Under the pieces are notes generated by a model. That model saw only the letters and a program-made list of their open reading frames with translations, was not told the origin of the DNA and made no database searches. A stretch of DNA of 64,000 nt, taken from Escherichia coli (GTDB taxonomy: Bacteria; Pseudomonadota; Gammaproteobacteria; Enterobacterales; Enterobacteriaceae). The DNA lies in assembly GCF_051903065.1 (NCBI RefSeq), contig NZ_CP178438.1. One strand, given 5' to 3'. The number at the start of each line of letters is the position of its first letter. The first letter of the stretch is position 1. Position numbers and translations under genes: made by a program. This document shows positions 5,908 through 63,982 of this stretch, one piece after another.

Positions 5908-5935
5908 AATTACTGCGAGCAAGCTCGCAGTAATT
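5908..5935 (-). terminator. rho-independent terminator downstream of gntU
   Basis: Perfect inverted repeat aattactgcgagc-aa-gctcgcagtaatt; on the minus strand it is followed by a T-rich tract (catttctcttttctcc...). Confidence 0.6.
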
Positions 5936-5946
5936 TGTCGCAGTAA

Positions 5947-7287
5947 TTAACTCAACAGCTGGAACGCAATCATCCCAACGATGGCACCAACAGTGCCGAG
6001 GATGGTTTCCATCATGGTCCAGGTTTTCAGCGTTTCGGCTTCGGTCGCGCCGGTAAATTTACCGAACAACCAGAAACCGGCGTCGTTAACGTGGCTGACA
6101 ACAATCGAACCACCGGCGATACAAATCGACAGCGCCGCCATTTGCGCACCGGAGTAGTTCAGTTGTTCAATGACCGGCATCACCAGCCCCACCGCCGTTA
6201 AACAGGCAACGGTGGCAGACCCCTGAATGATGCGCACTGCAGCTGCCAGCACGAAGCAGGTGATAGCAATCGGCAGGCCCATGCCGGTTAACGCTTCGCC
6301 CAGTGCCGGACCTACGCCAGAGTCAACCAGCACCTGTTTGAACACGCCGCCCGCACCAATCACCAGCAGAATGATCCCCGCCGGTTGCAGCGCGTGACCG
6401 CAAATCTCCATCACTTTGTCTTTTGGCATGCCCTGACGCATTGCCAGGCCATAAATCGCTACCAGACAAGCAACCAGAATCGCGGTAAACGGATGACCAA
6501 TAAACTCGAACCATTCGTAAGCAGTAGAGCCTTCCGGCACAAAACGCGCGGCAATGGTTTTCAGCCCCACCAGCACCAGCGGCAGCAGGATCAGCGACAG
6601 GCTGAATCCGAAGGACGGCATTTTGCCTTCGCCGAGATGCGGCTCGCTGATGTCGTCAGGAATATGCAGCTCAACGTAACGGCTGATGAAGTTACCCCAC
6701 AGCGGCCCGGCAATAATCATTCCCGGAATTGCCGCACACAGGCCAATCAGGATCATCCAGCCAAAATCGGCGTTCATCTGCGATGCCAGCAGCATTGGCG
6801 CTGGCCCTGGCACCAGGAACGCCGCCGCTGCCGCCACGCCTGCGAATAATGGGATTACCAGCTTCACCAGGTTCGTACCGGTGTGGCGCGCCATTGAGAA
6901 AGCAACGCTAATCAGCAGAACAATCGCCACTTCAAAGAACAGCGGTAGCGCACAGACCAGCCCCGCAAGGCCGATGGCATAATGCGCGCGGCTGTGACCG
7001 AAGGATTTAAGCATTTTGACGGCAATCTGATCGACTGCGCCGGTTTCATGTAAGATCTTGCCAAACATAGCTCCCAGGGCGACAACCACCGCCAGGAAGC
7101 CGAGGGTGCCTCCCATCCCTTTTTCCATCGTCGCTGCGATTTTATCGAGCGGCATACCGGAAAAAAGGCCAGCCCCCATGGACACCACCATTAAAGCCAG
7201 GAAAGCGTGCATACGCGCCTTCATGACTAAAAACAGCAGCAGTAAAACAGACCCTACTGCTGTTAAAACAAGCGTTAATGTAGTCAC
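5947..7287 (-). CDS. gntU: low-affinity gluconate transporter (GntP family)
   Basis: 446-aa polytopic membrane protein MTTLTLVLTAVGSVLLLLFLVMKARMHAF...; conserved position upstream of gntK/gntR. Confidence 0.9.
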   Translation of the reverse strand: MTTLTLVLTAVGSVLLLLFLVMKARMHAFLALMVVSMGAGLFSGMPLDKIAATMEKGMGGTLGFLAVVVALGAMFGKILHETGAVDQIAVKMLKSFGHSRAHYAIGLAGLVCALPLFFEVAIVLLISVAFSMARHTGTNLVKLVIPLFAGVAAAAAFLVPGPAPMLLASQMNADFGWMILIGLCAAIPGMIIAGPLWGNFISRYVELHIPDDISEPHLGEGKMPSFGFSLSLILLPLVLVGLKTIAARFVPEGSTAYEWFEFIGHPFTAILVACLVAIYGLAMRQGMPKDKVMEICGHALQPAGIILLVIGAGGVFKQVLVDSGVGPALGEALTGMGLPIAITCFVLAAAVRIIQGSATVACLTAVGLVMPVIEQLNYSGAQMAALSICIAGGSIVVSHVNDAGFWLFGKFTGATEAETLKTWTMMETILGTVGAIVGMIAFQLLS

Positions 7288-58483: not shown

Positions 58484-58529
58484 TCCCGCCCACCCGACTG
58501 CCCATCTATTGATCCAGAACAGGTAATCA

Positions 58530-58557
58530 GTATGACGAATACTTAAAATCGTCATAC
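58530..58557 (+). promoter_or_regulatory. NikR operator in the nikA promoter
   Basis: GTATGA-N16-TCATAC dyad (gtatgacgaatacttaaaatcgtcatac) about 40 bp upstream of nikA start. Confidence 0.8.
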
Positions 58558-58594
58558 TTATTTCCGCCATCTATTTTAATCCATTGGGGTTACC

Positions 58595-61113: not shown

Positions 61114-63917
<2,804 letters not shown>

Positions 63918-63949
63918 GTTATTTCTGAAACGAGGAAAGAAAAGATATT

Positions 63950-63982
63950 AACTGAACTTAATTTATAAAATTAAGTTCAGTT
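63950..63982. repeat. perfect 13-bp inverted repeat (hairpin) downstream of nikR
   Basis: aactgaacttaat-ttataaa-attaagttcagtt; no T-run, so not a canonical intrinsic terminator. Confidence 0.55.

Follow-up and report, generated by a model that had tools for sequence, protein, structure and literature searches.

A perfect AU-rich palindrome between the convergent nikR and hicBA genes of Escherichia coli as a possible transcript-end hairpin

A perfect palindrome lies between the convergent ends of nikR and hicBA, at positions 63950-63982 of the DNA analysed here, a stretch of 64,000 nucleotides from Escherichia coli (hereafter the window). It is a real, non-random, but ordinary intergenic hairpin. 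Our preferred reading, held at somewhat less than even odds (roughly 45%), is that the convergent transcripts of nikR and hicBA end at an AU-rich RNA hairpin formed by the palindrome, which would work as a weak non-canonical terminator or as a 3'-end protector; that RNA polymerase or exonucleases stop at the hairpin is what we infer. The palindrome on its own matters little. Its interest lies in how a variable E. coli locus is annotated, since a conserved hicBA pair and not an rhs element follows the window, and in the approximately 27% of E. coli in which the canonical hicB terminator has been replaced and an AU-rich perfect hairpin is all the structure that is left to separate the convergent units. 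If the hairpin truly stops or protects transcripts, it would be one more non-canonical, U-poor 3'-end hairpin.

The palindrome reads AACTGAACTTAATTT-ATA-AAATTAAGTTCAGTT (33 nt). The repeat finder reported a left arm (63950-63964) and a right arm (63968-63982) of 15 nt each, 100% complementary and separated by a loop of 3 nt (63965-63967); none of these parts is assigned to a strand. The initial annotation had described a perfect hairpin with 13-bp arms and an AT loop; the perfection was confirmed, while the arm length and the loop were not, as two A-T pairs per arm had been missed. Its judgement that the repeat was too perfect for chance held. The palindrome is the longest perfect inverted repeat of the window (loops of up to 10 nt), and none of 60 dinucleotide-preserving shuffles of the whole window gave a perfect arm longer than 13, a length reached in 2 of the 60. 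No second match to the 33-mer was found in the window at up to three mismatches (0 expected), and arm-like 13-mers occurred elsewhere in the window at about chance level. The predicted folds are stable as RNA on the + strand (-16.2 kcal/mol, z = -7.9) and on the - strand (-15.3 kcal/mol, z = -7.1) and as single-stranded DNA (-12.8 kcal/mol, z = -8.4), and folding of the 119-nt spacer returned the palindrome as its sole strong structure. Three of the 15 stem pairs are G-C and the base of the stem is made of A-U pairs; the stem energy ranges from -14.5 to -16.2 kcal/mol, approximately 0.44 kcal/mol per nucleotide, which is less than in typical terminators. In one haplotype, a G>A change beside the right arm lengthens the stem to 16 bp.

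The palindrome was correctly placed downstream of nikR (63516-63917, + strand, 133 aa), the last gene of nikABCDE-nikR, which follows nikE (62704-63510) in the list of open reading frames. The window stops 18 bases past the palindrome. Its last 601 bases match 5425 of the 5426 complete E. coli genomes and are 100% identical only to E. coli ECNB21-M121, the locus of which (L001; window coordinate = L001 coordinate + 55399, identity checked) was used to extend the sequence. There, nikR (annotated at L001 8117-8518) is followed by a 119-bp spacer, hicB, hicA and then yhhJ-rbbA-yhiI. The neighbourhood had been described as bordering rhs-type elements; the extension revealed neither an rhs nor any other mobile element, and hicB-hicA-yhhJ occupy its place. 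Both hicB (L001 8638-8997, - strand, 119 aa; Pfam HicB PF05534, 56.8 bits with a cut-off of 21) and hicA (L001 8994-9269, - strand, 91 aa; Pfam HicA_toxin PF07927, 37.2 bits with a cut-off of 27) carry the domains, and hicA lies upstream of hicB with a 4-nt overlap, the gene order, by which they are assigned to a HicAB type II toxin-antitoxin module. A sigma-70-like promoter-like site upstream of hicA points toward the palindrome (consensus scan, L001 9330-9303).

Palindrome and stop codons are 32 nt apart on the nikR side and 54 nt apart on the hicB side, and the two genes converge. The left part of the spacer (63918-63949, no strand assigned; GTTATTTCTGAAACGAGGAAAGAAAAGATATT) is common to the DUF3829-type and IS1-disrupted strains described below. 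The first 18 nt of the right part (63983-64000, no strand assigned; GCATAGATAGATCCTGTA...) are followed by 36 more nt up to the hicB stop codon (L001 8584-8637). The spacer has a G+C content of 31% versus 54% in the window. Neither a promoter-like site (consensus scan) nor an ORF of at least 20 aa was found within it, a search of Rfam with the palindrome returned no family (two meaningless weak matches at E up to 10), and a full-text literature search found nothing on this locus.

On the other side of the module, the hicA-yhhJ spacer (L001 9270-9341, 72 bp) carries four repeats of the form TATGAC(A/T)TCA / TATGAAGTCA over the hicA promoter-like site, the outer two being an inverted pair; these repeats are likely to be a HicB operator. 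A cryptic-clade Escherichia has the same 72 bp at 100% identity. Many genomes share a common variant of the module that is 14 bp shorter (L004 1976-2309; 809 vs 823 bp matched, in two pieces, with the change at the hicA end). The hicA annotation in genomes with this variant is 76 aa long, not 91 aa, or is missing altogether, which suggests a decayed toxin gene beside an intact antitoxin gene.

In the 119-bp gap, the transcripts of nikABCDE-nikR (+ strand) and hicA-hicB (- strand) could both fold the same 15-bp AU-rich stem, which sits at the 3' end of a transcription unit, between the convergent nikR and hicB stops. In the hicBA sense, a U-rich stretch follows the stem, which could act as a terminator of the intrinsic type, though a weak one. 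With the U tract absent in the nikR sense, it would there be only a pause or barrier and a block to 3'-to-5' exonucleases trimming a transcript terminated further downstream. Such protective stem-loops at 3' ends are known from REP elements and from the hairpins to which Rho-terminated transcripts are trimmed, and the palindrome resembles them in being an intergenic, U-less hairpin just past a stop codon, as are the hairpins in the K-12 and O157 nikR flanks.

The tails and the scores define how weak the terminator would be. The consensus scan called the - strand terminator-like (15 pairs, loop of 3, tail AATATCTTTT). Positions 63935-63949 read on the - strand give AAUAUCUUUUCUUUC, the U-rich tail behind the hairpin in the hicBA-sense transcript; its U-tract score is 0.9, or 2.4 with two terminal A-U pairs counted as tail. 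The + strand tail GCAUAGAUAG has no U tract. The earlier statement that a T-tract is lacking is accurate for the + strand (tail GCATAGATAG); on the - strand the tail AATATCTTTTCTTTCC is U-rich. A terminator score of the d'Aubenton-Carafa type (energies from ViennaRNA) was negative for the - strand (-33.0) as well as for the + strand (-42.7), where a positive score is expected of a terminator. The hicB terminator of O157, used as control, has a GC-rich stem followed by UUUUU, begins 5 nt after hicB and folds at -19.4 kcal/mol, with a score of +11.7. As the scores are negative on both strands versus +11.7 in the control, the palindrome is not a canonical intrinsic terminator. It shares with intrinsic and bidirectional terminators a stable stem-loop that lies tens of nucleotides behind two facing stop codons and has a tail rich in U on one strand and rich in A on the other, but it differs from intrinsic terminators in its AU-rich stem (3/15 G-C), in a U tract that is interrupted and offset, and in the negative scores on both strands.

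Three comparisons between arrangements of the locus speak for a role at transcript ends. In the window arrangement the canonical hicB terminator is gone, save approximately 11 nt of one arm (GCCGCTA...), which leaves the palindrome as the sole candidate stop signal for hicBA. The nikR 3' flanks of K-12 and O157 have their own unrelated U-less hairpins, at most approximately 15 nt from the stop codon (-14.6 and -11.6 kcal/mol respectively); the recurrence of unrelated hairpins in each alternative arrangement suggests that a hairpin might be wanted at this position, whatever its sequence. In the DUF3829-type chromosomes described below the nikR-sense tail is UUAUUUUAAUU (U-tract score of 3.4), which in combination with a perfect stem would give a score of -9.7, not far from the threshold. 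Counting against the transcript-end role are the AU-rich stem, the + strand without a U tract, and the fact that 73% of E. coli genomes, as well as Klebsiella, do without the palindrome.

The 33-mer was found at 1486 places in 1485 of the 5426 complete E. coli genomes (two places in one of them), all of them chromosomal and always in the nikR-hicB spacer. In a spread sample of these matches identity was 100% over 33 bases in every row but the last, in which 28 of the 33 bases matched owing to an IS1 insertion. The 83-bp stretch 3' of nikR occurs in 1497 of the 5426 genomes and is identical in ECNB21-M121 and in O104:H4 2009EL-2050, among others; 1490 hold at least 80% of it, and 1485 of these 1490 match the 33-mer, the other five having no exact 28-nt match to it. 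The whole hicBA interval was present in 2076 genomes, the approximately 580 extra ones being mostly O157-type. Searches of the plasmid collection with the 33-mer and the 83-bp flank returned nothing beyond two mis-filed E. coli chromosomes, and the phage collection held nothing similar to the palindrome. A degenerate core pattern matched 94 stretches among 100,044 species representatives, two of them enterobacterial: E. coli E69 and a 3.7-kb metagenome-assembled contig labelled Citrobacter with the same nikR-palindrome-hicB layout. The other 92 were rejected as relatives, as they are chance matches in AT-rich, unrelated genomes.

Outside E. coli, the cryptic-clade Escherichia sp. E3659 has the same spacer with two differences, both outside the palindrome, and an identity of 95-98% in the flanking genes. 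In Klebsiella aerogenes and K. pneumoniae, nikR and hicBA are convergent and adjacent, with a 27-bp spacer and no palindrome. Since Klebsiella shares the convergent adjacency, we conclude that the arrangement is old: the nikR/hicBA adjacency predates the Klebsiella split and hicBA is not a recent insertion, whereas the longer spacer with its palindrome is, as far as these comparisons go, a feature of the Escherichia lineage, single-copy and not mobile. We rejected the idea that the palindrome travels with hicBA, given that O157-type and Klebsiella hicBA have no palindrome and that in three genomes the palindrome lies beside a DUF3829 gene.

Variation within the spacer was compared in 17 further copies plus the cryptic-clade copy, which represent few haplotypes. 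None of the 33 palindrome positions was polymorphic versus 7 of the 86 flanking spacer positions; by our own calculation, the chance that all 7 variable sites miss the 33 palindrome positions among the 119 is P ~0.1, which is not significant. This conservation is compatible with the transcript-end role without being significant. No compensatory arm change was found among the spacer copies gathered, in which the arms are invariant, and this gives no evidence on pairing either way.

The nikR-yhhJ interval has at least four arrangements: hicBA only; a PTS island plus hicBA; a DUF3829 gene plus the island plus hicBA; and rhsB-yhhH-yhhI. The last is that of K-12, which has no palindrome and departs from the window sequence as soon as the nikR stop codon is passed. 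In O157-type genomes, nikR (TAA stop) is followed by approximately 200 bp of different sequence, by an island encoding a GntR regulator, PTS components, an FGGY kinase, HPr and an aldolase, and by hicBA; the palindrome is also absent there. The DUF3829-type arrangement (three genomes; E. coli Z1323HEC0462, here L007) begins with nikR, the same 32 nt and the first 9 nt of the arm, and continues with a REP/BIME-type repeat of 152 nt, a palindrome that is complete yet imperfect (one mismatch in the arms and AGA as its loop), the DUF3829 gene, a 24-nt nikR remnant, the same island and hicBA. The remnant (L007 15457-15480; CACGGGCATTTGCAGTGCCTGCCG) is the 3' end of a second nikR downstream of the DUF3829 gene and leads into the O157-type nikR-GntR spacer. 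This order shows that the DUF3829-type chromosome combines two nikR-flank haplotypes.

Chromosomes of the window type and of the L007 type part ways precisely at the final base of the right arm. The 41-43 nt to the right of the palindrome stand directly after the aldolase gene of the island in E. coli O157:H7 TR01, and in a low-coverage metagenome contig the same block is joined to a truncated aldolase gene. The simplest reading of these junctions is that an island-bearing arrangement lost the segment from DUF3829 to the aldolase and so gave rise to the window spacer, one end of the deletion lying at the hairpin base.

The 41 nt between aldolase and hicB occur as two unrelated alleles of exactly equal length (L122 917-970, TR01, versus L005 8962-9011). 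One allele has a canonical GC-rich terminator with UUUUU; the other is the right-hand block of the palindrome, which removes the aldolase stop codon and extends the protein by 11 aa.

The strongest competitor of the transcript-end reading, which we consider unlikely but by no means negligible, is that the palindrome has no selected function: it would be a young inverted duplication, made by template switching or snap-back in an AT-rich decaying spacer and kept at the junction of a deletion of the DUF3829/sugar-PTS island, perfect because it is recent and because E. coli diversity is low. Much of the distribution agrees with it. The palindrome is lineage-specific, being absent from Klebsiella, from the non-Escherichia species representatives and from 73% of E. 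coli, and it lies in a spacer far poorer in G+C than the window. Its right edge is the exact point at which DUF3829/PTS-island chromosomes diverge, and the position of the right-hand 41-43 nt after the aldolase of TR01, or after the truncated aldolase of the metagenome contig, makes the spacer look like the island form minus the island. Moreover, the terminator score is non-canonical, diversity is too low for purifying selection to show, and the island-bearing copy is an imperfect quasi-palindrome with one arm mismatch. Against an accident of this kind, unrelated hairpins stand at the same position in all other arrangements, suggesting a need; the palindrome is present with and without the island and so was not made by the deletion; and it is unchanged in the cryptic-clade Escherichia despite a divergence of 2-5% in the flanking genes. 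Quasi-palindromes are known hot spots of template-switch mutation in E. coli. The present case is like them: a short inverted repeat that is perfect in one lineage has an imperfect counterpart in another (a mismatch in the arm and an altered loop), and it sits at a deletion endpoint and attracts insertions.

Three insertions were found inside the palindrome. In the DUF3829-type genomes, the REP-type insertion (L007 14033-14231) lies within the left arm, after arm position 9, and has at its flanks a direct duplication of 9 bp (AACTGAACT) and an additional AACTG, with the slightly imperfect palindrome regenerated downstream. The 152-nt repeat is built of a pair of REP-like palindromes with an AT-rich centre between them; it is detected at a median of 9 places in E. 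coli genomes. With its duplication, the insertion looks like one half of a filled-versus-empty site pair. A REP-type insertion with a target duplication might be of interest for work on REP/BIME mobility and, if the pair is a true one, would be a rare natural record of the movement of a REP-type repeat. IS1 interrupts the palindrome in two strains, after position 14, in the left arm (L006 5033-5050), and after position 28 (L109 1501-1530; GDSC2227PM). These strains have different adjacent deletions, reaching to yhiN in the former and to yhiM in the latter, and have lost hicBA-yhhJ-rbbA and more. As all three insertions were found with palindrome-centred queries their detection is biased, and we do not claim an unbiased hot spot. 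That the AT-rich palindrome is a fragile site which shapes the variation between nikR and yhhJ, its hairpin, extruded or single-stranded, directing deletion endpoints to the base of the stem and attracting IS1 and REP-type insertions, is in our estimate rather improbable. Elsewhere in the window, a 35-nt stretch just after a zntA-like ORF (37425-37459) matches the REP-like part of the 152-nt repeat at 86%; this is probably a REP element of the ordinary kind.

It is very unlikely that the palindrome is a DNA dyad to which a dimeric protein binds, be it a transcription factor or a nucleoid protein. The initial annotation had raised this possibility, and nothing in our results came to its support. 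The palindrome does have perfect two-fold symmetry over 33 bp, and in the DUF3829-type genomes it is approximately 140 bp upstream of the DUF3829 gene start. In the window's arrangement, by contrast, it lies between two gene ends, in a spacer without a promoter-like site, arm-like 13-mers are no more frequent in the window than chance allows, and megablast over the 5426 genomes, in which the sequence is unique, disclosed no regulon of similar sites. There is no match by eye to the TGAC(A/T)TCA repeats of the hicA promoter region. The NikR half-sites GTATGA/TCATAC are missing, and a NikR operator was rejected, as GTATGA-N16-TCATAC is absent from 63950-63982. The palindrome is like that operator in being a perfect dyad in the nik locus, but its half-sites and spacing differ and it is located 3' of nikR, not at a promoter.

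Least probable of all is that the palindrome marks where an exchangeable or mobile element ends, attaches or recombines, as an rhs border, MITE-like ends or an island target would. The at least four arrangements make nikR-yhhJ a hot spot, one junction falls at the right edge of the palindrome, and three independent insertions lie inside it, although the bias of their detection weakens the last point. The copy number already largely refutes this reading: the palindrome is single-copy per genome and was found on no plasmid or phage. It is a unique sequence without further copies, the very outcome that the initial annotation had named as contrary to its proposal of a repeat or mobile-element edge, and that proposal fails for this reason; what survives of it is that the palindrome marks a boundary of structural variation within the species. 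Moreover, the window's strain has no recombinase or transposase gene in the vicinity, the palindrome is missing from the rhsB arrangement as well as from the O157-type chromosomes with their island, and the 24-nt nikR remnant points to homologous plus illegitimate recombination and not to site-specific integration. Four specific candidates were rejected. As for an island att-site, neither the palindrome nor its flanks nor a direct repeat recurs at the far end of the island. An Rhs border does not agree with hicB, hicA and yhhJ downstream, nor with K-12, which has rhsB yet no palindrome. Terminal inverted repeats of an IS or MITE do not fit a single-copy sequence with 3 nt between its arms and no flanking direct repeat. 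A REP/BIME or other dispersed extragenic palindrome does not fit 1486 places that all fall at one locus; the palindrome also differs from REP in being AT-rich and without the REP consensus, and three genomes have a genuine REP-type repeat within it.

Other dyads were noted in the window. A perfect dyad with 10-bp arms (58529-58558; AGTATGACGAATACTTAAAATCGTCATACT) ends 37 bp upstream of the nikA start and contains GTATGA-N16-TCATAC (58530-58557), the known NikR operator motif. Between a yhhN-like ORF (34162-34788) and the zntA-like ORF (34862-37060) there is a perfect 22-bp palindrome without a loop (34798-34819; ACTCTGGAGTCGACTCCAGAGT), presumably the ZntR-bound dyad of the zntA promoter. Finally, a perfect hairpin with 13-bp arms (5908-5935; AATTACTGCGAGC-AA-GCTCGCAGTAATT) lies 12 nt past the end of a minus-strand ORF (5947-7287) and is followed on the minus strand by a T-rich stretch; from this layout it looks like a terminator.
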